64,000 nucleotides of DNA, taken from positions 1-64,000 of IMG/VR virus record IMGVR_UViG_3300015373_000001. One strand, written 5' to 3'. The notes beneath the pieces are model-generated. The model ran no database searches, had not been told where the DNA came from, and was given only the letters and a program-made list of their open reading frames with translations. The translations under genes were made by a program, and so were the position numbers. Positions 16,974 through 40,148 of the stretch are shown here, piece after piece; the stretch's first letter is position 1, and every line of letters starts with the position of its first letter. Source of the DNA: an uncultured virus (IMG/VR IMGVR_UViG_3300015373_000001) (lineage: Duplodnaviria; Heunggongvirae; Uroviricota; Caudoviricetes).

Positions 16974-16983
16974 CGGATCAGCA

Positions 16984-17079: not shown

Positions 17080-17210
17080 CGTGTCCGAGATGCAGGTATC
17101 GGTTACTTCATCCTTCGAAATGATGACACTTAGGTTCGACTCCTGACTCCGGCCCAGGCCGGAGGCCGATGGCGGCAGTCTGTTACCGGCACCGACTTGA
17201 TTCGGACACG
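17080..17210 (+). ncRNA. yrlA: YrlA-type Y RNA (permuted tRNA mimic)
   Basis: Terminal stem CGTGTCCGA...CTTGATTCGGACACG; inside, T arm TTAGG-TTCGACT-CCTGA, 7-bp CTCCGGC-CCAG-GCCGGAG, D-like GCCG-ATGG-CGGC. Confidence 0.85.
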
Positions 17211-17216
17211 ACCCTC

Positions 17217-26393: not shown

Positions 26394-26700
26394 CCGCCCA
26401 GGGTGGTAGGCAGCGGCCGGTAGCGTCGCGGTCTAACCGCATCATCCTTTCGCTGACTCAACCGTGGAAGAAGACGATCACGCCGGTTGCTGCGGTGGCA
26501 CCTGCTACATTGATGCGCGGAGCGTCGTTGCCCGAAATGCCGAACCCCGGGGAACTTCCCAGGCTTTGCCGGGGCGTACTGAAACATCTGATGGCAGCCT
26601 TATCAAGGGCAAAAGTAGTAAGACCCGCGATTGACTGCTAATTGGACTAATAGGGAAAACTCGTCGTCTGGGCGGGCAACGGCGCTCCGCCTTCTTTTCG

Positions 26701-26774
26701 AAGCCTGAGGGGGGATCGAACCCCTGAACCGACGGCTTTGCAGGCCGCCTCCCGCGCCAGCGAGAACCCAGGCT
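26701..26774 (-). tRNA. tRNA-Cys(GCA)
   Basis: GCGGC-CTGCAAA-GCCGT; U73. Confidence 0.85.
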
Positions 26775-26997
26775 ATGTATTCAGACGTATGGCTGCCGCC
26801 CATACGATCAGGAGGACCAGGGCCGCCAATTTGATGAACGTCCACACGCCGCGCTTGGCGTCCTGCTCCATTTTCGGAAGTGCGGCCAGAGTACCCTGCC
26901 ATCTGCGCCACAGGTCCAACATCACCTGGAATCGTCTGCCGACGATGAATAGCATCATTCCGACGATGATGAGCAGCAGGACCCATTTGTGTGCCAA
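26773..26997 (-). CDS. Small two-TM membrane protein
   Basis: 74 aa, two hydrophobic helices. Confidence 0.55.
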   Translation of the reverse strand: MAHKWVLLLIIVGMMLFIVGRRFQVMLDLWRRWQGTLAALPKMEQDAKRGVWTFIKLAALVLLIVWAAAIRLNT

Positions 26998-27227
26998 GTC
27001 TCACTCCCGCAGGTCAGAGGACTGCAAAGCGCCTCCGCCAACGTACGCGCGGACGTCTCCGAATGTGGGGCGTTCAGTGTCATCGGGTCGCGTCGAATCG
27101 TACGGCGCCGCCCGGCTGCGACTGCTCCAGGTCCACCACGGCAGCCAGAAATCCGGCGGCGTCCAACTCTCCTCGCTGCAACCGCGCGACCAGATCGGAC
27201 GCGTCCAGAATCACCACTTCGTTCATG

Positions 27228-27311
27228 TGCGCCAGGAGAGATTCGAACTCCCAATGCCCGGAAGGGCCACAGCTTTACAGGCTGCTGAGCGACCAACTGC
27301 TCAACTGACGC
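27228..27311 (-). tRNA. tRNA-Tyr(GTA)
   Basis: CTGTAAA loop, long variable arm. Confidence 0.88.
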
Positions 27312-27312
27312 T

Positions 27313-27400
27313 TGGGGTGACCGACGGGACTCGAACCCGCATGAACCTTTCGGCTCCGGGGGTTCACAGCCCCCTTCCTCAACCAATTCGGATCGGTCAC
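27313..27400 (-). tRNA. tRNA-His(GTG), atypical (8/4 possible, long variable arm, no encoded G-1)
   Basis: GTGACCGA/TCGGTCAC, GGGGG-CTGTGAA-CCCCC, GAGCC-GAAA-GGTTC arm, C73-CCA. Confidence 0.85.
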
Positions 27401-27402
27401 AG

Positions 27403-27474
27403 TCGGCCTGGAGGGAATCGAACCCACACCTGATCTTTAGGAGAGATCTGCTCGGTCCTTCGAGCTACAGGCCG
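27403..27474 (-). tRNA. tRNA-Arg(CCT)
   Basis: GATCT-CTCCTAA-AGATC. Confidence 0.88.
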
Positions 27475-27483
27475 TGCCGCCGG

Positions 27484-27977
27484 TTACTTCGCCAGGCGGC
27501 TCGCGGTACGCCGCGCCGCTTCCGCCGAGTCGGGCGACGCCCTGAACACGTTGACCTCGTAGACGTCAACCTGCTCACCCAGCACCGGGAGCGTCTCCAA
27601 CGTCCGCACCGTGGCGACGCCCGCATCACGCGCTTCGACGACGAAGGTCGCTTGCACCGCCGTATTGGCGGGGTCTCCCACCCAGGTCAGGTGCATAACG
27701 TTCGGCACCACGTCCCTGCCGGGGGGCAGAGACGACAGCCTGGTGCGCGCCTCCTCCGCATCCGCCTTCGTCGCGAAGCCCCCCAGGATCAGTTTGACGT
27801 GCCAATTCTGCATGTCAGTCACCACCCATTCCCTCGCAAGATCTTGGCGCGTTCCTCGCTCCGCCGCAGCGCCTTGAAGCCGTACTTGTCGTCTTCCGCC
27901 ACGGCCCTCTGGCGGCGCCAGATCTTCGGAGCCTTCTTCGGCTTGTCGTCCTCGCTCGCGCTCTTGCCGAATCCCAT
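27484..27977 (-). other. Two hypothetical genes (27484-27825, 27819-27977)
   Basis: Overlapping ORFs, AGGAGG RBS. Confidence 0.55.
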
Positions 27978-28008
27978 GCGTTCCTCCTGTGGTTGTGTCG
28001 CTCTGACG

Positions 28009-28079
28009 TACCCGGTGAGGGAGTCGAACCCCCTCCTTCGCCTTGTAAGGGCGTTGCTCTCCCGTTGAGCTAACCGGGC
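28009..28079 (-). tRNA. tRNA-Val(TAC)
   Basis: CTTACAA loop; cloverleaf. Confidence 0.88.
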
Positions 28080-28122
28080 TTGACCATACACCAAACAGCG
28101 TACAGTCATTTAGCGTTCAAGT

Positions 28123-28557
28123 CTAGGTTGTTTTGTGATCGTGACCGCAACCGCTGACCAGCGGCGGCACCTGAACGCGGACGACTTGTTCTCGATCGCC
28201 ATAGCGGATCTGGATGAGTTCGTTCAGCGATGCCTTACCGGCCCGCTTCGACGCCTTGTCCTCGCCGAGCAGGACGGCGGCCAGTTCGTCAAAGGTCTGA
28301 TTGACGCGGGCGACCGCGTGACGCATCGCCGCTTCGGTCGCATCCGCCAGCTTGGCGACTTCGGCCTTCAGCCGGTCGTTGACCGCCTGGTCGGTGAGCT
28401 GGGGGATGCGGTCGATGAGCGCTTGCAGCGCCTTGCGTTCGGCGATCATATCCTTCAGGACGCCCCTGGCCTCACTAGTCGCCTCCCGCAGGCTCTCCTC
28501 TGTCGTGATTGCCGATGAGATGTCGTCTGGCCGCTGCTGACGGCGTTTGGTTCCCAT
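28123..28557 (-). CDS. Hypothetical coiled-coil protein
   Basis: 144-aa helical ORF between tRNAs. Confidence 0.55.
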   Translation of the reverse strand: MGTKRRQQRPDDISSAITTEESLREATSEARGVLKDMIAERKALQALIDRIPQLTDQAVNDRLKAEVAKLADATEAAMRHAVARVNQTFDELAAVLLGEDKASKRAGKASLNELIQIRYGDREQVVRVQVPPLVSGCGHDHKTT

Positions 28558-28558
28558 G

Positions 28559-28631
28559 TAGTCGCGGCAGGATTTGAACCTGCGACCTTCGCTGTGTCGA
28601 AGCGGTGCTCTACCAGCTGAGCTACACGACC
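28559..28631 (-). tRNA. tRNA-Val(GAC), C33
   Basis: CGCT-TCGACAC-AGCG. Confidence 0.82.
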
Positions 28632-28773
28632 TTTTGTGGTCGAACCCGGATCCCGGCATGCAGGGTAGTCCCTTGCGTTCCCTGTCTGCCGTCGGCGGGC
28701 CCGGCCGGTCGGCCCAGGCTTTCAGGGGGCGATACAGCCGTGGGTATCGCTAGGTTGGTCCGGGTTCGACCAG

Positions 28774-28846
28774 CACCGGTGGGAGGGTTCGAACCCCCGG
28801 CCTTCCGCTTTGGAGGCGGCTGCTCTACCAACTGAGCTACACCGAT
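28774..28846 (-). tRNA. tRNA-Trp(CCA)
   Basis: CTCCAAA loop, G73. Confidence 0.9.
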
Positions 28847-28952
28847 CGGGCGCGAGTGAGGTATCGCGCAGCTTTTTGCAGGACTTCCGGATCATCGCTC
28901 CTGACGATGAAGGCCGACGCCTGAGACGGGATCCAGGCGTCGGCCCGCTGAG

Positions 28953-29026
28953 TGGCGGGGGCAGGATTTGAACCTGCGACCTCTGGGTTATGAGCCCAGC
29001 AAGCTACCGAACTGCTCCACCCCGCT
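28953..29026 (-). tRNA. Initiator tRNA-fMet(CAT)
   Basis: CTGGG-CTCATAA-CCCAG (3 G-C pairs), 1:72 mismatch. Confidence 0.9.
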
Positions 29027-29036
29027 ACGTCCCATC

Positions 29037-29387
29037 CTACTTGGGACGCTCCACTACGTGGAGATCCTTTAGTGCGTCCTCGATCGCACGGTTCGTCGTC
29101 GCCGTCTCAATGACGGCGACACGCTGCTCATGCTCTACGAGGCTCAGGCGCCGATCGGCATAGGCGTCGGCCACCTGCTGCAACGCGTGGTCACGGTCGT
29201 CGCCGGTCGGCCTGGCGGCCAGCCAGCGTTCCATCTGCCGGGAGCGCCGCGCGTCCTGGATTACCTGCCTCTTCCGCTTCGCGTGGTCGATCTTCTCGGT
29301 CATCCACGGAATAGCCACAACGATCACAATTACGGCTATGGCCAGCCACAGGATGGCGAATGCCGGTAGAGCTGCCTTCATCATCAC
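29037..29387 (-). CDS. Membrane-anchored DUF1707-like protein
   Basis: N-terminal TM; DDRDHALQQVADAYADRRLSLVEHEQRV. Confidence 0.65.
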   Translation of the reverse strand: MMMKAALPAFAILWLAIAVIVIVVAIPWMTEKIDHAKRKRQVIQDARRSRQMERWLAARPTGDDRDHALQQVADAYADRRLSLVEHEQRVAVIETATTNRAIEDALKDLHVVERPK

Positions 29388-29421
29388 TCATCTCCTTCGG
29401 GTGGGTCGCTCTCCACCAACG

Positions 29422-29495
29422 TGCCGCCGACGGGATTCGAACCCGCAAAACCCCAGATTGAAAGTCTGGTGACTCTACCCTTCGTCCACGGCGAC
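29422..29495 (-). tRNA. tRNA-Glu(TTC)
   Basis: CCAGA-CTTTCAA-TCTGG. Confidence 0.88.
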
Positions 29496-29507
29496 CAGGG
29501 ACTTACG

Positions 29508-29579
29508 TACTCCGCGCGGGGATCGAACCCGCACCTCCTGATTGAGAATCAGGTATCCAGACCACCAGACCAGCGGAGC
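29508..29579 (-). tRNA. tRNA-Glu(CTC)
   Basis: CCTGA-TTCTCAA-TCAGG. Confidence 0.88.
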
Positions 29580-29645
29580 TTGTAGGGCCAGGCAGCGCAT
29601 ACCCAGATCACCCCTCCGATTCCTGGGGATGGCGCCTGACCCTTC

Positions 29646-30161
29646 TCACGCAACAGTTGCCGACTCTACTCGGAACCATTCGCGAGCCTGTGCGAAATGC
29701 TTGGCCGATACACCATGCTGCCACCCGGTGTGAATCAGCCGGAAGTCGCCGACGCCCGGATGCCCTTTCAGCCACACCTTGTCACGCCTGGTCAGCTCGT
29801 CATCGAACCAGACGAACGGCCGCCCCTGCACGAACTTCGCCACCCTCGGCGTCTTGCGGTGCACCCGGTAGTCATCCCCCGGCTCCACCGCCTCCCGCAT
29901 GTCGATGACCGGCAACTGAGGCAGCCCCAGAAGGGGAGCGATATGCGCGTTTGCGTCGTGGCTCCACATGGTCGCCCACACCAGGTCGGCGCCGACCGTC
30001 TCGGCCAGCTCCAGCAGCACCGGTCCATGTTCGGGGTTGAGCAGGACGTTGTACGTCTCGCCCTGGCAGGTCAGCCTGTGCGCCTGCCACTGCGGACCGG
30101 GACGCCCGAACGGTGCGAGCACACCATCCACGTCCAACAGGATCAACTTGTCCACGTGCAC
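29646..30161 (-). CDS. HAD phosphatase, Swiss-Army-Knife RNA-repair-like (HAD_SAK)
   Basis: LLDVDGVL motif I, LVWATMW motif II, RKT, FVWFDDE motif IV. Confidence 0.8.
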   Translation of the reverse strand: MHVDKLILLDVDGVLAPFGRPGPQWQAHRLTCQGETYNVLLNPEHGPVLLELAETVGADLVWATMWSHDANAHIAPLLGLPQLPVIDMREAVEPGDDYRVHRKTPRVAKFVQGRPFVWFDDELTRRDKVWLKGHPGVGDFRLIHTGWQHGVSAKHFAQAREWFRVESATVA

Positions 30162-30223
30162 ATCCTCTCCTTCGCGCGGGGTCGCTCTTCCCGCACCCGC
30201 GAAGACGTAGACCGTCTTCGCCG

Positions 30224-30296
30224 TACCCCCGCCGGGATTCGAACCCGGATTTCGACGCTTAAAAGGCGCCTACTCTGCCAATTGAGCTACAGGGGC
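30224..30296 (-). tRNA. tRNA-Lys(TTT)
   Basis: GGCGC-CTTTTAA-GCGTC. Confidence 0.9.
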
Positions 30297-30457
30297 ATGT
30301 CACGCAGGATTGGCGATCACCATCCCGCAGTCCTCACAGTGCGGCGGCCAGACCAGCCACCCCATCCACTCCTCCGAACGATCCAGTCCCTCCGGAACGA
30401 TCCTGCCGCCGCACTGCTGACAGTCGGGATAGAACCAGGTCATAGACCCTCCGTACG

Positions 30458-30530
30458 TGCGCCGTGAGAGATTCGAACTCCCAACCATCCGGGTAGAAAC
30501 CGGCCGCGCTATCCATTGCGCCAACGACGC
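30458..30530 (-). tRNA. tRNA-Arg(TCT)
   Basis: CCGG-TTTCTAC-CCGG. Confidence 0.88.
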
Positions 30531-30730
30531 GAACCTTTCACGATCCGAAACGATCGTTTCATTCCATCGCCACGCCCGGTCCTAGAACCGGGCAGAACGA
30601 CACTGGCACCAGCCGCCCGGTGGCCATGTCGCTGCACGCGAGGCAGATCTCCGCCGGGATCGTGTGGCGGCTTTCCCCGTCGGGCCGGTAGTCGATCGAC
30701 TCGTGCCAGCCCGACTCCGGGTCGTCCGGG

Positions 30731-31138
30731 TCATAGCCCATATTTCGCCTCATCCTTCACGTACACCATGTAGGCGATCACGCCCGCTTCGTAGGCGGCC
30801 CGCCGAGCGTCGGCGTCGGTGTCGTACTTGGTGCCGTCCAACGGGTGCCTGATGATGTCGCAGCCGCCTTCGGGCTTGTACTTGATCTGTCTGATACTCA
30901 GCTCGATCTTGCCGTCGTCGGCTGCGACCACGGACGGCGAGGACATCACCTTGCACAGTCGCGGGAACGACACTCCCCACTCGGCGTGAGTCACTATCGG
31001 CGGCCCGCCGTCGGCGTAGGTCGGGAAGCGGCCGTAGGGGGCTTCATTGAAGGTCCAGATGCGGTAGCGACCGTCGTGCCAGTCGTATTCCTGGCCCTGC
31101 ATCGGCGGGTAGTCGGTAACGTTCTGTGGCGTGTCCAT
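30731..31138 (-). CDS. Hypothetical protein
   Basis: Own promoter, GAGCGACC leader and GGAGG RBS. Confidence 0.65.
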   Translation of the reverse strand: MDTPQNVTDYPPMQGQEYDWHDGRYRIWTFNEAPYGRFPTYADGGPPIVTHAEWGVSFPRLCKVMSSPSVVAADDGKIELSIRQIKYKPEGGCDIIRHPLDGTKYDTDADARRAAYEAGVIAYMVYVKDEAKYGL

Positions 31139-31177
31139 GGGGTCCTCCGTGGGGGTTGGTCGCTCTCCAACACCCCA

Positions 31178-31207
31178 AAGATACATCCATTTAGCGTCTT
31201 AGGTCAA
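31178..31207 (-). promoter_or_regulatory. Promoter with CGCTAAATG spacer motif
   Basis: TTGACC-18nt-TATCTT. Confidence 0.7.
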
Positions 31208-31210
31208 GGG

Positions 31211-31301
31211 CGGAAAATGGAGGACTCGAACCCCAGGGCCGTTCACACCAGCCCTCATCCGGTTTAAATCGGCGGCCACCTCCTTGGTGGCGTCATTTTC
31301 C
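31211..31301 (-). tRNA. Sec-like 8/4 tRNA, ambiguous anticodon (TTA ochre or TAA Leu)
   Basis: GGAAAATG/CATTTTCC 8 bp, T stem 4 bp, D stem GCCACC/GGTGGC, long variable arm, G73, loop ATTTAAAC. Confidence 0.75.
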
Positions 31302-31327
31302 CCCACCGTGTTGAGGGGTGGGTCCAG

Positions 31328-31411
31328 CGGAAGGCGGAAGACTCGAACTTCGGCCGCCGCCGACGGCCACGCGGATTCCAGCCGCGTCCCGGCACCTGCC
31401 GGTCACCTTCC
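31328..31411 (-). tRNA. tRNA-Ser(GGA), 8/4 structure
   Basis: GGAAGGTG/CGCCTTCC, GAAG/CTTC T stem, ACGCGG-CTGGAAT-CCGCGT, long arm, G73. Confidence 0.85.
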
Positions 31412-31412
31412 A

Positions 31413-31488
31413 TGGTCCTCGGAGCAGGAGTCGAACCTGCCGTCGCCCGGTTATCAGCCGGGTGCCTTCACCGCTTGGCCACCCGAGG
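31413..31488 (-). tRNA. tRNA-Ile(GAT)
   Basis: CCCGG-CTGATAA-CCGGG; CCA encoded. Confidence 0.88.
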
Positions 31489-31492
31489 AAAG

Positions 31493-31577
31493 CGGAGAGG
31501 GAGGGTATCGAACCCCCGCCGGTGTGACCCGGGCAGCGGCGTAGCAAGCCGTCCCATTACCTCTCTGGCACCTCTCC
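31493..31577 (-). tRNA. tRNA-Ser(GCT)
   Basis: GGAGAGG/CCTCTCC, TTGCTAC loop, long arm. Confidence 0.87.
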
Positions 31578-31678
31578 ACGATACTTCCATCTAGCGCCTG
31601 CCGGTGCTACCTTGGAGTGGTACGCCCCTGGTCCGGCTCTGCACCGCATCCCGCCAGGGGCACGGCCATTTCTGGGAC

Positions 31679-31753
31679 TGGTGCCGACCCCGGGATTCGA
31701 ACCCGCCCTACCGCCTTGGCAAGGCGATGTGCGACCGCTGACACTTCACCCAC
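31679..31753 (-). tRNA. tRNA-Gly(GCC) with poorly paired acceptor stem (possible pseudo/chimera)
   Basis: TCGCC-TTGCCAA-GGCGG; GTGGGTG vs GGTCGGC pair poorly; A73-CCA. Confidence 0.65.
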
Positions 31754-31826
31754 AAGTTCCGTGACCGGTGGACCGACGACTCGGGTGTGGACGGGGCCGG
31801 GGCGACCATCCTCCGGTCACGGAAAG

Positions 31827-31896
31827 AGCCCAACCCCGGAGTCGAACCGGGCAGGCCGTTCGTACCAAGAACGGGTGCACACCAGGTGCGAAGGGC
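31827..31896 (-). tRNA. tRNA-Thr(GGT), atypical
   Basis: CGTTC-TTGGTAC-GAACG; compact D arm; tandem U.U in acceptor. Confidence 0.75.
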
Positions 31897-31945
31897 AAAC
31901 GGGTAGGGGTGTCCGGGCCGTGAACGCCCGGCCCGGACACCACCG

Positions 31946-32018
31946 CTCTGGGATCAGGAATCGAACCTGAGCAAACCGGAACCAAAATCCGGCCGCCGAG
32001 CCAGCACGGCATCCCAGA
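31946..32018 (-). tRNA. tRNA-Gln(TTG)
   Basis: U1-A72, G73, TTTTGGT loop. Confidence 0.85.
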
Positions 32019-32023
32019 ATGCG

Positions 32024-32094
32024 AGCCCAAGGGCGGAATCGAACCGCCTCGAACGCCTTACGGGGGCGCTGCTCTGCCAGTGAGCTACAAGGGC
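32024..32094 (-). tRNA. tRNA-Thr(CGT), C33
   Basis: GCGCC-CCCGTAA-GGCGT; tandem U.U in acceptor. Confidence 0.8.
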
Positions 32095-32109
32095 GTGACC
32101 CCGAAGGGC

Positions 32110-32787
32110 CTACATGTCCGGCCGGGGCTGAAACTCCGGCCTGGAGCTGATCTCCTCAACCCAGTCCGACAGGGAGATCTCTTCGCCGGAGCCACTATAG
32201 AAGGCGAGATCGTCCACCTTCGCATGCAGTTCCACGTCATGCGGCATTGGCAGGATGCCTTCTGCTTCGGCGGTGTCGCGGTGCTTAACGACCGCGAAGG
32301 CGAGGCGGAACAGGGTGTCCTGGTTCCGTTTGCGCTTGTCCGGATTAGGTTCTGCCGGATGCCTGCCGTTCAGCTTGTTCGGCCCGGAGGCTGCGCGGAT
32401 CCGTTTGATGTCGGAATGCCGCAAGCTGATGATCTGCTTGTCTTTGAGGATTTTCGTACGCCACAGGTCATATTCGCCCTTGGCGGCGAAATACTTGCGT
32501 TTCCCCTCTTCGCCCAGATTCCAGCACTGCTGATGGTAGGAGTCCATCTCTGCTCTCCGCGTCGCGATCTGGTCGTCCAGGGCACGCAGCAGACGAACCA
32601 GAGCCTGCTCGGTCCGTTCGATCAGCGACGGCCCGGAGAGCATCCCCCAAAGCTGTTGACGCTTTTCGGTCACCGAGACGTCGTCGTGGCGACGAGGGTC
32701 GGGATAGCCGATGTTTTGACGGATCAGCAGGTCGAAGCCTTCAGGCTCCAGCTCTTGAATGGCGGCAAGGCTCACGGGGATGGCCAT
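32110..32787 (-). CDS. Hypothetical protein
   Basis: 225 aa, lower GC, GAAGGAA RBS. Confidence 0.6.
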   Translation of the reverse strand: MAIPVSLAAIQELEPEGFDLLIRQNIGYPDPRRHDDVSVTEKRQQLWGMLSGPSLIERTEQALVRLLRALDDQIATRRAEMDSYHQQCWNLGEEGKRKYFAAKGEYDLWRTKILKDKQIISLRHSDIKRIRAASGPNKLNGRHPAEPNPDKRKRNQDTLFRLAFAVVKHRDTAEAEGILPMPHDVELHAKVDDLAFYSGSGEEISLSDWVEEISSRPEFQPRPDM

Positions 32788-32862
32788 GGGTGGCGTGTTC
32801 CTTCTTCCGGGGGTTGCCGTCCCGGCGCCGGACAAGACACCGGGACGATCCTGTGTGGTGCG

Positions 32863-32935
32863 TGCGCCCGCCGGGACTCGAACCCGGATCATCCGCATCC
32901 TTAGTGCGACGCCTCTGCCATTGGGCCACAAGCGC
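32863..32935 (-). tRNA. tRNA-Leu(AAG), short variable loop
   Basis: TCGCA-CTAAGGA-TGCGG, 5-nt variable ATGAT, A73. Confidence 0.82.
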
Positions 32936-32971
32936 TTCAGGACGGTTCTACAGGCCGCCACCGACAAAACG

Positions 32972-33040
32972 AGCCGCCCCCCGGAATCGAACCGGGCCTA
33001 CCCCCTTACAAGGGGGGCGTCGCATCCATGGCGCGGCGGC
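32972..33040 (-). tRNA. tRNA-Thr(TGT), atypical D arm
   Basis: CCCCC-CTTGTAA-GGGGG. Confidence 0.75.
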
Positions 33041-33050
33041 AGACGGAAGA

Positions 33051-33139
33051 GGGTGGCGACGGAAAGGATTCTGCAGCCAAACCGCCCAACCAGCCCGGCG
33101 GTCTCCTTCCCGTTCTTCTGTGGCTGTCCACGCCACCCC
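33051..33139 (-). ncRNA. Unidentified ~88-nt structured RNA, copy 1
   Basis: Nested stems; paralog at 33272-33357. Confidence 0.7.
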
Positions 33140-33143
33140 CGTG

Positions 33144-33263
33144 TGGACCCGGCGGGATTCGAACCCGCATCTCCGGCTCTCCCTATGACGCACACCGCCC
33201 CCGGACGGAGGTGGCCACCTCGTATCCGGATCGCGCGGTCACGCCCGATTGAGTTACGGGCCC
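33144..33263 (-). ncRNA. Ala-acceptor tRNA-like RNA with extended internal hairpin
   Basis: GGGCCCG/CGGGTCC (G3.U70), A73, perfect T arm, ~70-nt central region. Confidence 0.7.
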
Positions 33264-33271
33264 TGGCAGAT

Positions 33272-33357
33272 GATGGCGACGAGGGGGACAAAGCCTCCAA
33301 AGCGCCCAACCAGCCCGGCGCGCTCCCTCTCGTCCTTCTGCGGCTGTCCACGCCACC
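33272..33357 (-). ncRNA. Unidentified ~88-nt structured RNA, copy 2
   Basis: Shares GGTGGCGTGGACAGCC-CAGAAG...CGCCGGGCTGGTTGGGCG with copy 1. Confidence 0.7.
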
Positions 33358-33364
33358 ACCTGAG

Positions 33365-33447
33365 CTGTCGGGCGGAGAATCGAACTCCGGCCGCCCCTCG
33401 CGCGAGGAGAACGACCCTGCCACACGTCTCAACGACGCGACCCGACA
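33365..33447 (-). ncRNA. tRNA-like RNA without recognisable anticodon loop
   Basis: TGTCGGG/CCCGACA, T arm CGGAG-TTCGATT-CTCCG, D-like GCGTC/GACGT. Confidence 0.6.
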
Positions 33448-33631
33448 CCGTGACGGTTCCTCCGGATCACCTCGGGAGCAGCCGACAAGCCCGAGAGGGC
33501 GGGAGCGACCCTATTCGGTACCCTTCCGTCGCGAGCCGGTGCGGACTCGAACCGCCGTTGACCGTCACCGGCCGTCCCCACTCGCGACGCGGGGACGGTC
33601 GGCCGCCGGAGTCGAACCGGCATACCCAATG

Positions 33632-33701
33632 CTCCCGGACCAGGAATCGAACCTAGAGACACAGGGGCCAGAACCCTGCTGACGGCCACCGCCATCCGGG
33701 A
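33632..33701 (-). tRNA. tRNA-Gln(CTG)
   Basis: CAGGG-TTCTGGC-CCCTG; U1-A72, G73. Confidence 0.8.
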
Positions 33702-33763
33702 AGGAGCAGACCCGGTTGCAGCCGGGCCCGCCAATTATCCGCCTGCTCTACGGACGGGCAAAT

Positions 33764-34192
33764 CTACCAGGAGTCCCACACGCCGAAGTGGCGGTGGCGC
33801 GGGTCCGGGTATTCGACGTCCCAGGCGGCCTGTACGGCATCCTGGGCGCCTCGCAGCATCTTGCCGACCTCCCGGCCAACGGCCCGATCGGCAGCGCGCA
33901 GGGCGCGTTCCTGACGGTTGGAGATGCCGCCGATCACGTGCCCCAGGTTGAAGGTACGCGGGTAGGTGCCCGCCTCCAGGCGGCGGGTCACCCGGTCCGG
34001 GCGCGGACGGTGCCCGGCGCGCTCAGCCTGGGCCAGCGCGGCGGCGCTGTAGCGCAGCGCGGACCGGATCTCGTTGGCGGTGCTCGGGTAGGTGGCACGC
34101 CACCAGGCGAAGATGTAGAGGCGACCGTCGGCGTCGTAACGCCGGGTGCCAGTGCGGTGGTTGTAGGGGACGTGGTGAACAGTACGGGACAT
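33764..34192 (-). CDS. Hypothetical basic protein
   Basis: 142 aa, MSRT...RHRHFGVWDSW. Confidence 0.6.
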   Translation of the reverse strand: MSRTVHHVPYNHRTGTRRYDADGRLYIFAWWRATYPSTANEIRSALRYSAAALAQAERAGHRPRPDRVTRRLEAGTYPRTFNLGHVIGGISNRQERALRAADRAVGREVGKMLRGAQDAVQAAWDVEYPDPRHRHFGVWDSW

Positions 34193-34277
34193 TCGGACTC
34201 CGACGTGCGGGCCCGCCCCGGATGGGCAAGCCGTCTACGTCTCACCCGCCGTGAACATCACATTCGCCTCCTTCGCG

Positions 34278-34350
34278 TAGGGGTGGCCGGATTTGAACCG
34301 GCATCATCCGCATTTTGAATGCGGCGCCTCTGCCGTTGGACTACACCCCC
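34278..34350 (-). tRNA. tRNA-Leu(CAA), short variable loop
   Basis: CCGCA-TTCAAAA-TGCGG, variable ATGAT, A73. Confidence 0.82.
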
Positions 34351-34351
34351 G

Positions 34352-34423
34352 TGCGCCGTCAGGGACTCGAACCCTGCTCTCTCGATTAAGAGTCGAGTGC
34401 ATAACCATCCATGCTCACGGCGC
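34352..34423 (-). tRNA. tRNA-Lys(CTT)
   Basis: CTCGA-CTCTTAA-TCGAG. Confidence 0.87.
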
Positions 34424-34531
34424 TTTCCGTCCGGCCGGTTAGCGTCGGCCTGCCGGACGATCCCTGACCCGCCCGGGGGACGCCAATCCCGCCGGTGCAG
34501 TATCAGGGCACCCCACCCAAGTGGGGTGTAG

Positions 34532-34602
34532 AGCCGTACCGGAGAGTCGAACTCCGCTCCCCGCGTTGGAAGCGCGGGACATCGCCACAATGCTTGTACG
34601 GC
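34532..34602 (-). tRNA. tRNA-Gly(TCC)
   Basis: CCGCG-CTTCCAA-CGCGG; U73. Confidence 0.87.
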
Positions 34603-34603
34603 A

Positions 34604-34671
34604 TGGGGACCAGGCGGGGAATCGAACCCCGCTTTCCTAGGATTTCCGTGCCCTTTCCGGGGGCCTGGTCC
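34604..34671 (-). ncRNA. tRNA-like RNA with His-type G-1:C73-CCA end and no anticodon arm
   Basis: GGACCAGG/CCTGGTCC-CCA, T arm CGGGG-TTCGATT-CCCCG. Confidence 0.6.
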
Positions 34672-34837
34672 ACGGCGGGAAACGGCCCGGGTGCCCACGA
34701 GTGATCAGCTCGCAAACACTGACGGTATCCGTAGGGGTTTCCCCCTTTCCGATCCGGTTCATCCCGCGTGCTCGACGACGCTCCGGATCCCCCTTCGCTG
34801 GCAACCCAGCTACTAAGTTCACCTGCACCGTCGTGCG

Positions 34838-34909
34838 TGGCTCCCCAGAGAGTCGAACTCTGTCCTCTGGATCTTCAGTCCGGCGCTCATCCCCATGAGC
34901 TTGAGAGCC
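34838..34909 (-). tRNA. tRNA-Phe(GAA)
   Basis: CTGAAGA loop; cloverleaf. Confidence 0.85.
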
Positions 34910-35123
34910 TTTCGATCTCACCCGGCCGCAGAAGCTAGTGGTCGGGTGTCTTGTTCTCGTCGTCTATGACGCGTGTGGCCGCTGCCGCTGTGGCATCCTT
35001 CTTGGCCGCTATCCGCTTATTGATCTCTCTTATGTCTGCCTCGATCTCACGCAGTTCGCGTGCCTTTCGTCCGAACATGTCGCCTCCTGGCTAGGGGGGT
35101 GTCAACCTGGCGGGGAATTTTCG

Positions 35124-35342
35124 TTACGGTGCCTGGTCGAAGTATCGGCGGCCACGTTCGAACGCCGTCGTCCGATGTACGCCGTGCACGCCCTCCGTTG
35201 CCGCCAGGACGCGTCCCAGCGCCGTCTTGTAGGCGCTACGGGCGGTCGCCGCTCCAGGGAGTGGCCCGTCCGCGTTGTTGACTCTGGCGTCTTCACGGGC
35301 GATGTCAGCCAGCAGGTCTTCAACAAGCTTCTGTATGTCCAT
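35124..35342 (-). CDS. Small hypothetical protein
   Basis: AGGAG RBS and GAGCGACC leader. Confidence 0.6.
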   Translation of the reverse strand: MDIQKLVEDLLADIAREDARVNNADGPLPGAATARSAYKTALGRVLAATEGVHGVHRTTAFERGRRYFDQAP

Positions 35343-35472
35343 GGTTCTCCTGTCGGGTCGCTCTCCCGTTGGGTGGTGGGCTGCTGTACAGCGCCGCCCA
35401 CCAGGCGCTCCCCCGCACGGCCGTGCGGGGGCCGGTCACCCATACTCGATGACTTTCAGGTGATTCCGGACG

Positions 35473-35544
35473 TACCCGCGACAGGATTCGAACCTGCATC
35501 CTCGACGTTCGTAGCGTCGCGCTCATCCATTGAGCTACACGGGC
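35473..35544 (-). tRNA. tRNA-Arg(ACG)
   Basis: CGACG-CTACGAA-CGTCG. Confidence 0.9.
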
Positions 35545-35918
35545 ATGATGCACGACAGGGCCAGGGACTTCCGTCGCAATGCGTGTTACCGCTCTTCCAG
35601 CCCTGCCGTGCACGATCTCCTGGCCGACCACGCGGGCGTCTCACCCCGCGACCGGACCCCCACCTAACCGGCCAGGTCGTTCTCACCGCCCAGTGCGGCG
35701 CATTCCGTGCACGGGCGCGTCCTCAGCGGACCAGGCCGCCAGAACAGGATCAGCGCCCCGAACGGCGGAATGATCGCCGCTATGGACGGGTTGCAGAACT
35801 CGTCCTCACCCTTGAAAATCGTTGGCTTCCACCAGCAGGTGAGCGTGGTGGGCGACCACCACATCAGGCGGCCGATGTTGAACTGCTTCACACTCGCCTT
35901 TCGGATCAGCCGGGAAGG

Positions 35919-36092
35919 TCACTTCTTGTTGTTGATCTTTGCGCTACGGGCGACCGTCCTGGCCCGCTCGTAATGCGCATCCGACTCCGCCTTGTCGCCG
36001 TCCAGCTCCGCGATGAAACCCTTCGCGGCATGCTTGGCGACCTGGTCAAGCTGCTTGTCGGTCAACTTCCCATACTCCGCATTGCCCGCCAT
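35919..36092 (-). CDS. Small helical hypothetical protein
   Basis: AGGAGG RBS. Confidence 0.6.
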   Translation of the reverse strand: MAGNAEYGKLTDKQLDQVAKHAAKGFIAELDGDKAESDAHYERARTVARSAKINNKK

Positions 36093-36260
36093 GGGCGCCT
36101 CCTGTGAGACTCCCGAGTCGCTCAACCGGGAGAAGGTGCGGGTGCCGCTTCACTACGGCCTAGGCCACGACCGACCGGCTTTCTCCGCAACGCGTACGCT
36201 TCGCCGACCAGCCTCCCAAGGGCCAGAGCCCGGGGTAAGGGTTCCCGGGCGCTCCCGCCG

Positions 36261-36415
36261 TCCCTGGTGCTGGATTCGAACCAGCAACTTCCGCCCCCGT
36301 ATTCGGGATTACCCGGCCAGGTCCCCGCCCTGCCCGACTAGTACGGGCTGAACGGTTTACCCCTGACAAACGGGCCCCGGCGGGACGATGCCTCTACCAA
36401 TTGGGCTACCCAGGG
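36261..36415 (-). ncRNA. tRNA body with ~80-nt structured insert at the anticodon loop
   Basis: CCCTGG/CCAGGG acceptor, D arm GCCC-AATTGGTA-GAGGC, T arm GCTGG-TTCGAAT-CCAGC. Confidence 0.75.
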
Positions 36416-36448
36416 CTGGAGTGAGGCGTGATGTGCCTCACTCTCGCG

Positions 36449-36524
36449 TACCCGCAGCAGGATTCGAACCTGCACCATGCCCCACTCCGGAGGTGGGTGC
36501 CCTGTCCAGTTGGGCGATACGGGC
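36449..36524 (-). tRNA. tRNA-Arg(CCG)
   Basis: CCCAC-CTCCGGA-GTGGG. Confidence 0.87.
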
Positions 36525-36585
36525 GTGCGTCAGATCGTGGACGCCTGTCGAGGGTCGAACCGGCTCACGATCTGACTTGCGACGT
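36525..36585 (-). ncRNA. Short copy of T-loop-containing stem RNA
   Basis: GTCAGATCGTG/CACGATCTGAC 11-bp stem. Confidence 0.6.
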
Positions 36586-36785
36586 CACGTGTCGTCGCCG
36601 TCCGAAGCGTACGGGTTCACCTGGTAGAGCTGCTCCCGAAGCTTGTCGTAGTCGAGAACGAGGGCCTCAGTTCGACCGTCACTGGGGATTCGCATGAGGA
36701 CGGCATGCCCGTCCTCATCCCACCCCAACTCGTAGGGGTTGCCGACTTTGTCATGACACGTTTTCCACGATCCACTGAACTTCAT
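36585..36785 (-). CDS. Small hypothetical protein
   Basis: AAGGAGG RBS. Confidence 0.6.
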   Translation of the reverse strand: MKFSGSWKTCHDKVGNPYELGWDEDGHAVLMRIPSDGRTEALVLDYDKLREQLYQVNPYASDGDDT

Positions 36786-36809
36786 GCTGTCCCTCCTTTC
36801 TCTGTGACG

Positions 36810-36885
36810 TACCGCTGGCCGGAATTGAACCGGCGACCTTCAGATTGAGAATCTGACGACCCGAACCAGCAGAGTCTTCAGCGGC
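36810..36885 (-). tRNA. tRNA-Glu(CTC)
   Basis: TCAGA-TTCTCAA-TCTGA. Confidence 0.85.
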
Positions 36886-36995
36886 CTTGTGACATCCGGA
36901 CTCGAACGAGCCGGTACGTATGCCCACCGTACGAATTACCGCGCGGACCTTCGTACAGTGCGGTACCGCTGGGGAGTGCCACGCCCCCCGGGCCG

Positions 36996-37068
36996 TGCTC
37001 GCAGCAGGATTCGAACCTGCGGTCTCCTCCTCCGGAGGGAGGCGCCTTGTCCTCTGGGCCATACGAGC
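36996..37068 (-). tRNA. tRNA-Arg(CCG)
   Basis: CCTCC-CTCCGGA-GGAGG. Confidence 0.87.
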
Positions 37069-37185
37069 GTGCGTTAGATCATGGGCGCCTGCCGGGGAGT
37101 CGAACCCCTCTACGACTTGGATGCGCATCCGCTGCCGCTTCGCCGGACCTGGAGTCGAACCGGATCATGATCTAACTTGCGACGT
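37069..37185 (-). ncRNA. Double T-loop structured RNA
   Basis: GTTAGATCATG/CATGATCTAAC stem enclosing two GG-TTCGACT-CC hairpins. Confidence 0.65.
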
Positions 37186-37200
37186 TGTACACCGTCGCCG

Positions 37201-37275
37201 TGCCGCTGACCGGAATCGAACCGGCGACCTCCAGGGTGAAAGCCTGGCAACCCAACCAGCAGGGTCTTCAGCGGC
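37201..37275 (-). tRNA. tRNA-Glu(TTC)
   Basis: CCAGG-CTTTCAC-CCTGG. Confidence 0.85.
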
Positions 37276-37700
37276 ATTGCCCGATTGCGGCTCGGGGCGG
37301 CCGTCGGACAACGTCAACTCTTCCCCTTGGAAGCACGGGCCGCGAGGCGCCTTTCGTAGTTCTGTTTGGCCCTAGCGTTCGACTCCCTAAGGTCCTTCCT
37401 CATCTGAGCTACGCCCTCGATCAGCACGACGACGGCGTCACCAACTGTCAACTTTCTGCGCAATATGATCACCTCCTCCTGGTCATATTCACGATCGGCC
37501 CTCGGTCCCACCCCTGCGCGGCGCGTGTACACCACGCCGCACAGGCTCCCGAGGTCTCTCCGCCCCGTCCGCCGATCGCTAAGCCGCCTTCTGTCCGAGG
37601 GTGACGGCCCCCATACCCATGGGTGGACACTGTGCTGAGAGGGCCGCAGGTCCCCGCGTACGGCGTACCTGCGCTGCCAGGCCAAAGGACCCTCTCACCG

Positions 37701-37771
37701 CGCCTGCGACGGGATTTGAACCCGCGCCCCCCACGCTGACAACGTGGTGCTCTGCCTTGAGCTACACAGGC
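37701..37771 (-). tRNA. tRNA-Asp(GTC)
   Basis: CCACG-TTGTCAG-CGTGG; G73. Confidence 0.9.
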
Positions 37772-37989
37772 TTGCCGTGCAGGCGGTCACCCGCACGGGG
37801 ATGGTTACTCGTCGTGCCAGGAACCTGGCCCGCACGGGTTCTTCTTGCAGTCAGCGCACACGCCCGGATTGGCGATGTCGTTGACCATCATGTGAACGCC
37901 GCAACAGGTGCAGTCCGCAACGCCGGATTCAGCCATATCGTCCTCCTGGTAAAGGGGTCGCTCTCCCTTTGCGATCACAGGCATTTTGC

Positions 37990-38180
37990 GGGGGAGTGGC
38001 CCTCCTGGCTGACGTCCGGACGTCTCCAGGTCAGTTCCCCCTCCGTGATGGGATTGCCTCGATTGAGGACGACCGGCCACCTCACCGGATCCCCGGCGGT
38101 TCCCGGCAGGCGACCGAAGCCGCCTACCGGACTGGAGACTCATCACGGGTGATCGGCGCGTTTTCCCGGGAACCACCCCG
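37990..38180 (-). ncRNA. Candidate double-pseudoknot structured RNA
   Basis: Two 8-bp crossing complementarities, two closed domains, C(UUCG)G tetraloop. Confidence 0.6.
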
Positions 38181-38203
38181 AAGATTGGCGCCGAACCACT
38201 GCG

Positions 38204-38275
38204 TAGCGACAGCAGGGTTCGAACCTGCGACCTTCTCGTTATGAGCGAGGCGCTCTACCACTGAGCTATGCCGCC
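38204..38275 (-). tRNA. tRNA-Met(CAT) elongator (or Ile2)
   Basis: CTCG-CTCATAA-CGAG. Confidence 0.85.
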
Positions 38276-38294
38276 AGAAATCATCGACAGACGT

Positions 38295-38519
38295 CTACGC
38301 CAGGTCATAGCCGCCACGCGGGTCGATATCGTCAATAGCGATTCCTTCGGCAAGACACAGGGCTCCGCGAGCATCTGCCATCGACGTTCGCAGATCAGCC
38401 AACGCCACCGAGTCACCGCGCTCCTTCGCCAAGCGCATGTCACCTGCCAGACTGAGCATCAGGTACTTGGGGTGAAGTTCCAACCCAAGGGGGATCTTGG
38501 TCACATGAACCTCCAGCAT
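38295..38519 (-). CDS. Small hypothetical protein
   Basis: 74-aa ORF between tRNAs. Confidence 0.45.
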   Translation of the reverse strand: MLEVHVTKIPLGLELHPKYLMLSLAGDMRLAKERGDSVALADLRTSMADARGALCLAEGIAIDDIDPRGGYDLA

Positions 38520-38650
38520 TGGGGGTGGTAAAAACGGACCCCCCGGCGAACGGGTTACCCCCGCCCTACGCGGCCCTCAGGGGCTCTCAGGTCCGCGATT
38601 TCGCATGGATCGGGGGATCCGGTCGGGACGTCCGCGAGAACGTCCCTGCG

Positions 38651-38722
38651 TGCGGATGACAGGATTCGAACCTGCGCACTCCTCGCCCCAAACGAGGTGG
38701 GCTACCACTGCCCTACATCCAC
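38651..38722 (-). tRNA. tRNA-Pro(TGG)
   Basis: CCTCG-TTTGGGG-CGAGG. Confidence 0.85.
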
Positions 38723-38799
38723 AGTGACGGGTACTTCGGGGGCTGTTTCCTCTTGCGTCGGAGCGACCAACCACGGAGCGCTCCCCGAAGTACCCGAAG

Positions 38800-38869
38800 T
38801 GGACCGGCGGGATCCGAGCCCCCGCATCCGCCCCCCGTCGGAGGCGAGTCTTCCTTAGACTGACGGCCC
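38800..38869 (-). pseudogene. Degenerate Ala-acceptor tRNA-like element
   Basis: GGGCCG/CGGTCC-A, D arm GTCT/AGAC, aberrant 9-nt T loop. Confidence 0.45.
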
Positions 38870-38909
38870 TGATGATGTTCCGATCATCTGCGGTGTGTGC
38901 GCAACACAG

Positions 38910-38982
38910 TGGACCTGAGAGGACTCGAACCTCCCGCCTACGCCCTGCCGAGGCGTCGCTCTACCTGATGAGCTACAGGCCC
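38910..38982 (-). tRNA. tRNA-Ala(GGC), C33
   Basis: G3.U70; ACGCC-TCGGCAG-GGCGT. Confidence 0.85.
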
Positions 38983-39168
38983 ATATGGGACGGGCGCCGG
39001 GTACAGCCGGTTCTCCCGGTGTGGCGATCGGCTTCTGCTTCTCGCCCGTCCAGAGGGGACTTACCCGACCCCTCGGCGGTGGGACATATCCGGTCCCTGC
39101 GGAGGCAGCCTTTCCAGTGTTTTTGAAAGGAGATTCCGGTCGGCTGCCACCCACCTGTCTTCTCCTTG

Positions 39169-39234
39169 TGGACCGGCCAGATTCGAACTGGCGACTATCC
39201 CCGCTAAGGGTTGCCACGCCAACGGCTGCGGTCC
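39169..39234 (-). pseudogene. Degenerate tRNA-like element (loop TTAGCG, possibly Ala-AGC)
   Basis: 6-bp GGACCG/CGGTCC, perfect T arm GCCAG-TTCGAAT-CTGGC. Confidence 0.5.
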
Positions 39235-39312
39235 TGGGGATCATCCACGAGGTGCTAGACCGAACGTCGGTGACTAGTACGACGCTCACGCTTGCCTCCC
39301 GGCTTCACCCTT

Positions 39313-39385
39313 GCGCACCGACGGGATTCGAACCCGCACCCTTCCCCTGGCCTTACGGGGTGCTCTCGCCATGAGCTGCGGCGCG
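39313..39385 (-). tRNA. tRNA-like, 9-nt anticodon loop centred on AGG (Pro?)
   Basis: CGCGCCG/CGGTGCG, canonical D and T arms, CCCC-GTAAGGCCA-GGGG, C73. Confidence 0.6.
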
Positions 39386-39524
39386 TCCGACGGTCAGGTG
39401 TGCAGGTGGCCTGCCTGCGTCTGCCGCCGGAAGTTGGTGGGGCCCGCAGGTGAGCGCCGTGGCGCAGGAACCCCTTCGCGTCTGACTGTGCGCCAGCGCG
39501 TCGGGCACCGTATTGGACCCCGCG

Positions 39525-39594
39525 TGGACCTGGAGAGATTCGAACTCGTCTTCCCGCACCTTGCAAGGGTGGGGCGTCCCCTGGACTCAAGCCC
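39525..39594 (-). tRNA. tRNA-Ala(TGC), weak T stem
   Basis: G3.U70; CACC-CTTGCAA-GGTG. Confidence 0.7.
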
Positions 39595-40076
39595 GTGGGG
39601 GTGGATGCCGGTCGCCGGGTGCACGAATCGTGCGCCGACCGGTAGCGGGAATCACTGACCATCTGGGGTTAGCTACCCGCCGGGCCATGGCGCCGCGTCA
39701 TCGCGGAACCTGTTGGCTTCCGGCATCCACCCGATCCCCTTGCCTCATTCGCGGCGCATGACAGTTACCGGCGGACCGGGTTGTGGGCTGTGAATGAGGT
39801 TCGGGAATTCTTTCATATGCCCCGGGATGGCGCCCGGGGCGAAGTCGGCGTGTACGGGACCGTGGGTCGCCGGAAGCGAGTCGGCGCGGTGTTGCCGCGT
39901 TCGCTTGGCCCGTGAGGCGTTTGCTTGGCGACAGGTCCGGGCTAGGGTCGCATATCCGGCGGCCCACGGAGCCCGTGCACACCTTTCTTAGGTGTCTTCT
40001 TCCACTGTTGAGTTTTCAACGCGCCCCGGCTGGGGCTCCTACCCGTACACACCCCGTGGTGGCGGTGTGGGGTGCG

Positions 40077-40148
40077 CACCGATGGCTGGATTCGAACCAG
40101 CAGTCCTCGCCTTAACAGGGCGGCGCTCTGCCATTGAGCTACATCGGT
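40077..40148 (-). tRNA. tRNA-Asn(GTT)
   Basis: CGCC-CTGTTAA-GGCG; G73. Confidence 0.9.

Follow-up and report, generated by a model that had tools for sequence, protein, structure and literature searches.

A tRNA-shaped element with a long arm in place of its anticodon loop in the tRNA array of an uncultured phage: possibly an unspliced, non-decoding RNA

What is to be made of a phage gene that has the body of a tRNA and, where the anticodon loop should be, some 80 nt of additional sequence? The question is raised by a 155-nt element on the minus strand of a 64-kb window (64,000 nucleotides) that forms the start of a 77.8-kb record from an uncultured virus (IMGVR_UViG_3300015373_000001; record completeness estimate 66%; ~65% G+C). 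The element sits between tRNA-Arg(ccg) and tRNA-Arg(acg) genes in an array of 37 tRNA genes that ARAGORN finds between 26.7 and 40.1 kb, every one on the minus strand. The original prediction, made from the letters of the window alone, offered two identities, an unusual intron or a tRNA-scaffolded functional RNA. The element fails the known tests for introns and for Y RNAs, and the reading tentatively favoured here is an unspliced, non-decoding, tRNA-shaped RNA, with a dead tRNA gene nearly as likely.

The body features of a decoding tRNA are present: six of the seven acceptor pairs, the D-arm motif of its family, a perfect T arm with the loop UUCGAAU, and the nucleotides U8, A9, A14 and G18G19. 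This agrees with the earlier description of an intact acceptor, U8-A9, D arm and T arm, with the proviso that the acceptor has six pairs and a G7·A66 mismatch. The ~80-nt domain that had been placed behind a stem TCGTCCC/GGGGCGG is also there, as 81 extra bases behind seven pairs, two of them G·U. A decoding tRNA requires a 5-bp stem and a 7-nt anticodon loop. Here the stem opens into 88 nt, and the 7-nt loop at the tip of the arm, UACUAGU, has an A at the U33 position and lies ~35 pairs away from the body. Without a stem and loop of the required form, the element would be unable to decode. Its parts are as follows, in the order of the RNA and beginning with the spacer that precedes it.

36416..36447, minus strand: spacer from tRNA-Arg(ccg) to the element, a perfect 9-bp hairpin with a 7-nt loop
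36261..36415, minus strand: the whole tRNA-shaped gene, 155 nt, a type I tRNA-Leu-family body with an 81-nt insert, delimited from the sequence, ARAGORN with introns allowed and a custom acceptor/T-arm scan
36409..36415, minus strand: acceptor 5' strand CCCUGGG, RNA positions 1-7, whose partner is 36262-36268
36390..36406, minus strand: D arm GCC-CAAUUGGUAGA-GGC, positions 10-26, with a 3-bp stem, inside the 19-nt motif TAGCCCAAYTGGYAGAGGC
36382..36388, minus strand: anticodon-stem 5' strand UCGUCCC, positions 28-34, whose partner is 36291-36297
36302..36382, minus strand: the 81-nt insert, positions 34-114, labelled an intron by ARAGORN, predicted to form a long, interrupted, GC-rich rod
36325..36355, minus strand: central hairpin, positions 61-91, made of CCGUUC/GGGCGG, an A·A mismatch and GCCCG-UACUAGU-CGGGC
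36291..36297, minus strand: anticodon-stem 3' strand GGGGCGG, positions 119-125, followed by a 5-nt variable loop AAGUU
36269..36285, minus strand: T arm GCUGG-UUCGAAU-CCAGC, positions 131-147, with a perfect stem
36261..36268, minus strand: acceptor 3' strand ACCAGGG and discriminator A, with no CCA encoded

Neither standard ARAGORN nor the Rfam tRNA model (RF00005) reports the element. Once introns are allowed, ARAGORN returns a tRNA-Arg(acg) in which the 81 nt after position 33 are taken for an intron. The spacer hairpin folds at -16.5 kcal/mol (z -4.58, none of 200 shuffles as good) and may be a processing signal; that it should be counted as part of the element is unproven.

The predicted minimum free energy (MFE) of the whole RNA is -74.6 kcal/mol (z -2.54, 1 of 200 shuffles as good), and the arm alone reaches -51 kcal/mol (z -2.38, 3 of 200 shuffles as good). 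The favoured fold is a long interrupted rod of ~35 pairs that continues the anticodon stem and ends in CCGUUC-A-GCCCG-UACUAGU-CGGGC-A-GGGCGG, with the palindrome ACUAGU inside the tip loop. The MFE structure drops the pair U28·G125 and leaves six pairs in the anticodon stem; the full 7-bp stem occurs in the second-best structure (-74.4 kcal/mol). The insert had been drawn as a branched junction of three hairpins, and the energies speak for the rod instead: the junction as drawn reaches -48.1 kcal/mol and, with extra pairs allowed, -71.5 kcal/mol, still 3.1 above the MFE. The individual hairpins of that drawing fared unequally among the best 8 of the 180 structures within 3 kcal/mol of the MFE. 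GCCCG-UACUAGU-CGGGC is found in all eight and CGGG-UAAU-CCCG in three, and GTTTG-TCAGGGG-TAAAC in none.

Several further identities were considered for the element and rejected. The insert is present as a single copy in the 77.8-kb record, on which ground a mobile element was set aside. The arm contains GGGGUAAACCG, which we take to resemble the end of an E. coli-type CRISPR repeat; a CRISPR-repeat mimic was dismissed, with no Rfam CRISPR-DR match at E up to 10 and a poor stem geometry. An amber suppressor would be read from the CUA in the tip loop, which is preceded by A where U33 belongs and sits on a ~35-bp arm. A tmRNA would have a tag reading frame and, for AlaRS, a G3·U70 pair where the element has C3-G70, and ARAGORN reports no tmRNA in the window. 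An internal promoter or terminator was likewise discarded: no promoter-like site was found in 35400-37400, and the single terminator-like site lies outside the gene on the opposite strand.

The body can be placed in the type I (short-variable-arm) tRNA-Leu family, with which it has in common the sequence of acceptor and D arm, a D stem of 3 bp, a variable loop of 5 nt, the T arm and the discriminator A. It differs in having no 7-nt anticodon loop: 81 nt inside the loop extend the stem, and the remnant loop would read ACG, which is not a Leu anticodon. The D arm had been matched to those of the two short-arm Leu tRNAs of the array, Leu(aag) and Leu(caa), and alignment agrees, extending the match to an ordinary 77-nt tRNA-Leu(cag) in the related provirus G001 (18 of 19 bases). 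These two are the only Leu tRNAs that ARAGORN lists among the 37, so the array indeed has no Leu(CAG/TAG/GAG) tRNA. A scan for the 19-nt motif over 10 of the 64 parts of IMG/VR gave 122 stretches (~800 are estimated in the whole collection); the motif was hit 126 times, but four hits had a name in common with another and were not counted apart. Ordinary tRNA-Leu genes of 74-78 nt (one of 84 nt), with all six Leu anticodons, account for 112 of these 122 named viral carriers. The other carriers of the 25-nt 5' end of the element, two viral and three from GTDB genomes, are ordinary tRNA-Leu genes in five cases out of five. On these counts, the D-arm match is far beyond chance, and the motif can be regarded as a hallmark of the phage tRNA-Leu family.

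To our knowledge, leucyl-tRNA synthetases do not read the anticodon. Fan et al. (2019, PMC6614811) describe short-variable-loop tRNA-Leu as a known type in Streptomyces and report that the leucyl-tRNA synthetase (LeuRS) of Streptomyces coelicolor charges type I tRNA-Leu, for example tRNA-Leu(CAA). Taken together, these two points make leucylation of the element RNA conceivable, by analogy.

How might such a gene be expressed? We infer the following course for its transcription, processing, stability and any function. An 81-nt insertion would have opened the anticodon loop of a type I tRNA-Leu gene, which now carries the long GC-rich arm. The element would be transcribed together with the tRNA array, and its RNA would be cut out by host tRNA-processing enzymes: RNase P would cleave the 5' side, the 3' end would be trimmed and CCA would be added. 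Such processing is to be expected of an RNA that keeps its acceptor stem, D and T arms and elbow nucleotides. The product, tRNA-shaped and ~158 nt long, would persist unspliced, an outcome that is favoured because no known splicing route fits. Since it would be barred from decoding, its sole plausible activity would be that of a tRNA mimic or carrier. The body may engage tRNA-binding proteins (processing or modification enzymes, possibly LeuRS, or host tRNA-targeting nucleases), with the long arm as the cargo or the blocking part. Two features of the element argue for this course: the tRNA elements outside the anticodon loop are intact and match those of working relatives, and the insert extends the arm coaxially, as a 7-bp stem followed by the rod, and does not scramble it.

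The setting is consistent with an unspliced, tRNA-shaped RNA of this kind. The proteins encoded in the window include a portal protein, DnaB, the DNA polymerase III beta clamp, SSB and dCTP deaminase, together with a Ro60 (TROVE domain) protein (17317-19002, plus strand). The best matches of the Ro60-like protein, with 40-44% identity over 97-98% of its length, are 'Ro-like RNA binding proteins' of the Streptomyces phages GiJojo, LuckySocke, Alone3, BRock and Kradal; the Ro-like protein of Arthrobacter phage Atuin falls in the same class of identity and coverage, and those of Gordonia phages are 37-38% identical. These matches point to an actinophage of the general kind of the Streptomyces phages. 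A 171-aa open reading frame (ORF) within the tRNA array (29646-30161, minus strand) has a match (E 2.7e-10) to HAD_SAK_2, a HAD domain that belongs to 'Swiss Army Knife' RNA repair proteins. Judged from these matches, the HAD_SAK_2 protein and Ro60 fit a theme of RNA repair or RNA quality control, in which this phage seems to invest. The related provirus G001, whose DnaB is 65% identical to that of the window, has a syntenic tRNA array: the gene order is common to 26700-40148 of the window and 932-6667 of G001. With respect to the Ro60 and DnaB genes on its flanks, the array is inverted.

Precedents for a tRNA-shaped, non-decoding RNA in this company can be found, by analogy, in two places. 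The first is the published YrlA RNAs, which have tRNA-like domains bearing tRNA-type modifications. The second came from a custom scan, which finds an unannotated 154-nt tRNA-shaped gene in Streptomyces phage GiJojo (PP725410.1, L374, 7205-7358), between tRNA-Asp and tRNA-Glu and 2.7 kb upstream of Ro60. With blastn, genes of the GiJojo type are detected in 21 records of Streptomyces phages; 20 of these have no annotation for the gene, and in the other a 'hypothetical protein' overlaps it. Members include Alone3, LuckySocke, Francob, Comrade, Kela, JustBecause and Gilson (L375-L381). In an alignment of eight representatives (154-190 nt), compensatory changes affect 18 of the 35 pairs predicted. 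Covariation is seen in the acceptor, in the T arm, in a closed 'anticodon' hairpin with the conserved loop AAAACGGA and in a long-range stem; this stem encloses a variable-arm domain of ~75 nt that contains the invariant motifs GCACCGAAUGGC and CUGUAGGGAAGCGCG. No Rfam family matches this RNA, and a scan of 45 kb of phage Kela for a second family returned the GiJojo-type member only. The likeness to the element is considerable: a full tRNA body with an extra domain of similar size, missed by tRNA finders and lying in the tRNA arrays of Ro60-encoding actinophages beside Asp, Glu or Arg(acg) tRNAs. The differences are that the extra domain stands at the variable-arm position beside a closed hairpin, whereas that of the element is enclosed by the anticodon stem, and that the family is conserved and covarying, whereas the element is not. 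Searches for GCACCGAAUGGC and CUGUAGGGAAGCGCG gave chance-level hits with two mismatches in the window and hits with two or three mismatches in G000 and G001, none of them in the element, and the GiJojo-type RNA is judged from sequence not to be homologous to it. Comparison of these records nonetheless shows that actinophage arrays of this group carry conserved tRNA-shaped RNAs with large extra domains. Of the two identities first offered, the tRNA-scaffolded functional RNA is ranked first, helped by a covarying tRNA-shaped family elsewhere, while the insert itself is unique and shows no covariation.

Inserts in the anticodon region also occur in other phage tRNA genes of the Leu family. A complete scan of IMG/VR for the Leu D-arm motif followed by a T loop 50-80 nt later gave 24 stretches, in which 11 contigs, with six distinct sequences, hold single tRNA bodies with an anticodon-region insert, and one contig has a long variable arm. 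Extending the spacing to 81-111 nt (37 of the 64 IMG/VR parts) added a few candidates among many adjacent-tRNA pairs, and many of the long candidates were rejected as two adjacent tRNAs. L105, L310 and probably L269 were also rejected as tRNAs with an insert, being really YrlA-type or tandem modules. Excision of the insert would restore perfect Leu loops in five cases: CUUAAAA in L232 and L294, CUCAAAA in L243, UUAAGGU in L229 and AUUAGGA in L227. L232 (194-317, plus strand) and L294 (189-316, minus strand) are diverged copies of one tRNA-Leu(UAA) gene with homologous inserts of 50 and 54 nt, placed inside the anticodon between U34 and A35, which we take to be the site of the classical tRNA-Leu(UAA) group I intron. 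Of the 34 pairs predicted, 9 differ on both sides between the two copies yet remain paired, some of them in the insert and some in the tRNA helices; with two sequences only, these compensatory changes are suggestive. No Rfam family matches the phage tRNA-Leu inserts, and those of L232 and L294 are too small for group I.

A good deal weighs against a functional RNA, beginning with the narrow distribution of the element. The 155 nt were found in four identical copies (the window, two IMG/VR contigs and one metagenome contig). Neither blastn nor megablast finds anything similar in 50,697 phage records. In GTDB genomes, the 3' 22-mer has no hits and the 5' 25-mer has three, all of them ordinary tRNA-Leu. 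The syntenic array of provirus G001 has no counterpart of the element, and no match there for the two small proteins that flank it. When IMG/VR was scanned for exact patterns taken from the element (5' part, central hairpin, 25-nt 5' end) and from its 3' flank, the same phage or ordinary tRNA-Leu genes came back and nothing else. A homolog search with the element and with the insert (blastn against 84 loci) yields self copies only. Strain variation points the same way. Among 10 sequencing runs found, none is listed as an RNA run containing the region. When the DNA contigs of four runs were compared over 35800-37000, a contig from a different study (X6) proved ~95% alike in the flanks, with 22 differences in 35800-36282 and none in 36083-36282. 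There 138 other letters replace 36283-36553, and the alignment resumes at 36554; the replaced part takes in the element minus its last 22 nt. The alignment thus breaks inside the T loop of the element, at 36282, and the pattern reads as a mosaic with its breakpoint there. Because the X6 strain carries other sequence in its place, the element appears to be either dispensable or very young. The 200 nt that are identical in X6 consist of a non-coding stretch downstream of the element and the last 22 nt of the element itself; a small ORF next to them differs at ~16 places.

These observations are what would be expected if the element were a dead tRNA gene. In that account, a recent 81-nt insertion inactivated a duplicated tRNA of the array and left a neutral, not-yet-decayed relic whose RNA has no role. 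This is somewhat unlikely taken by itself and is nearly as likely as an unspliced tRNA look-alike. An insert that is unique and does not covary had been named beforehand as the mark of a random-insertion pseudogene; so far that is how the insert looks, and a near relative does without the element in the same form. The array could have lost a spare copy without cost, with Arg(ccg), Glu(ctc) and Glu(ttc) each present twice near the element (ARAGORN) and an intact tRNA-Arg(acg) directly downstream (35472-35544). It tolerates imperfect genes, as a degenerate tRNA-like gene at 33144-33263 attests. The G7·A66 mismatch in the acceptor, the absence of a promoter-like site in 35400-37400 and a fold only modestly better than that of shuffles (z ~-2.4, weak for a 72%-GC stretch) belong on the same side. 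Set against a relic are the integrity of all arms and elbow nucleotides around a stem that is extended and not disrupted, an insert with no sign of a mobile element, and the comparable tRNA-Leu anticodon-loop inserts of L232 and L294, which have been kept with compensatory changes.

The unspliced, non-decoding RNA must also be weighed against a gene that is spliced and against a partner of Ro60. Removal of the 81 nt would call for a splicing route as yet undescribed in bacteria or phages and would leave a tRNA of 74 nt, Leu-type in its body, with the anticodon loop CUACGGG. Excision between positions 33 and 34 would restore a canonical Y32-U33-NNN-R37 loop, which differs by a single base from CUACGGA, the Arg(ACG) loop of a related phage. 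The Leu loops left by excision in L232, L294, L243, L229 and L227 lend this some colour, as does the preservation of both tRNA and insert helices in L232 and L294. The restored loop is weak evidence, however, because the flanks can be split in eight ways, two of which yield a U33/R37 loop, and such loops are frequent in random sequence. The anticodon would moreover be ACG, of Arg type and not Leu, with a risk of mistranslation on a Leu-type body, and C33 and G120 could pair within the spliced loop. A preprint reportedly deals with bacterial tRNA genes, tRNA-Leu(UAA) among them, whose anticodon loops contain group I introns, and the element resembles these in having an intervening sequence in the anticodon loop of a bacterial-type tRNA gene. 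Group I introns are ~200 nt or more, and the original remark that the insert is too small for one holds: 81 nt is too small for a group I core, and an Rfam search of 36100-36600 at E up to 10 finds no group I intron. The splice sites have C33 and A114 in place of the usual U at -1 and terminal G. The MFE fold does not form a bulge-helix-bulge, its 5' junction lying within a helix and its 3' junction in a 6-nt internal loop. The tRNA splicing endonuclease (tRNA_int_endo, PF01974) was not found in the 66%-complete record by a search that was positive in four archaeal control genomes, nor were RNA_ligase and RtcB domains; with one third of the genome missing, absence is not proven. The unusual intron of the original prediction therefore finds little support, and a spliced tRNA is improbable. 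Still less probable, to the point of being very unlikely, is a Y-RNA-like partner of the phage Ro60 in tRNA topology, that is, a circularly permuted YrlA with the Ro-binding helix inside the long arm. It has in its favour that the phage encodes Ro60 and that the D arm of the element is similar to the one in the tRNA-like domain of YrlA; the same 19-nt motif lies inside YrlA-type modules of other phages (L310, 36 bits; L105, 33 bits). The arm also holds UUUGUCAG, identical to the 3'-strand motif of the phage YrlA L310, and at positions 109-118 CCCGAAUACG, the string nearest to, and not an exact instance of, the GNCGAAN0-1G motif. By published criteria (Chen et al. 2014, PMC4201824), a YrlA has that motif near its 5' end and is encoded on the strand of the Ro60 gene, no more than 4 kb from it. 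The element is on the minus strand, 17 kb from the plus-strand Ro60 gene, and in its MFE fold UUUGUCAG and CCCGAAUACG do not face each other. Its best overlaps with the Rfam YrlA model (RF02553) score 15.8 and 15.4 bits against a gathering threshold of 69; such scores are uninformative, because the same model reaches 28 bits by accident across two adjacent ordinary tRNAs in G001.

Topology separates the two kinds of RNA as well. Both are non-decoding RNAs of Ro60-encoding actinophages with tRNA arrays, and both combine a tRNA-like module (D arm, T arm and acceptor-like stem) with a long helix at the place of the anticodon stem. YrlA has both its ends in the long helix and an acceptor-like stem closed by a loop, whereas the element has tRNA topology, with complementary acceptor strands at its two ends and, by inspection, no partner strand or D arm downstream. 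The window contains a better candidate for the Ro60 partner. Directly upstream of Ro60 and on the same strand lies a YrlA-like RNA (17080-17212, plus strand; z -4.08, none of 200 shuffles as good) with an exactly YrlA-like predicted fold: a closing stem, a T arm UUAGG-UUCGACU-CCUGA, a closed acceptor-like stem and a D-like arm. Given this position, Ro60 would already have a partner RNA. A shorter hairpin just before it (16978-17056, plus strand) has the same end motifs, CCGAGAUGCAGG and CUUGAUUCGG. The Rfam models YrlA and YrlB report neither of the two at E up to 1.

Other genes of the array depart from the ordinary tRNA in their own ways. The degenerate gene at 33144-33263 (minus strand) is a second oversized tRNA-like gene, of 120 nt and 31.5 bits on the Rfam tRNA model. 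It has an acceptor GGGCCCG/CGGGUCC, a good T arm, a poor D stem and ~50 extra nt in mid-gene; the G3·U70 pair of its acceptor is the alanine identity mark. Two 88-nt genes on the minus strand were assigned by ARAGORN to tRNA-His(gtg) (27313-27400) and tRNA-Ala(cgc) (33531-33618). In the former, the variable arm is long and the D stem has 3 bp, which gives a type II shape that is unusual for His, and the latter looks atypical for its anticodon.

What does a tRNA-shaped RNA with a long arm mean for phages of this kind? A broader proposal, itself unlikely as matters stand, is that actinophage tRNA arrays encode a hidden class of natural 'tRNA-scaffolded' RNAs, host-processed tRNA bodies with functional domains of 50-110 nt in place of or beside the anticodon arm. 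The element would be a young member of that class on a type I tRNA-Leu body, which could be leucylated yet barred from the ribosome, and might act as a decoy or adaptor in a conflict over tRNAs, for instance against tRNA-cleaving defences or together with the phage Ro60 and RNA-repair genes. Ponchon and Dardel reportedly engineered a 'tRNA scaffold' for recombinant RNA expression, in which a structured RNA is grafted on the anticodon stem. The element is alike in carrying a foreign structured RNA on a tRNA anticodon stem, where tRNA processing and folding would protect it; the scaffold differs in being a laboratory design. Searches of open-access papers and bioRxiv returned no description of a natural scaffold in tRNA topology, nor of small non-group-I introns in phage tRNAs.

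The firmer point is that tRNA-shaped genes with large inserts systematically escape both tRNA finders and phage annotation, and that one such missed family is conserved and covarying in 21 cultured Streptomyces phage records, where it can be tested at the bench at once. If the element is a dead gene only, it illustrates the turnover of a phage tRNA array, through insertion into an anticodon loop and replacement of a segment with a breakpoint in the T loop. Should its RNA prove to be produced and stable, the laboratory tRNA scaffold would have a natural counterpart, and phages a second tRNA-mimic architecture beside YrlA, one in which the tRNA topology is kept and the RNA is perhaps aminoacylated.

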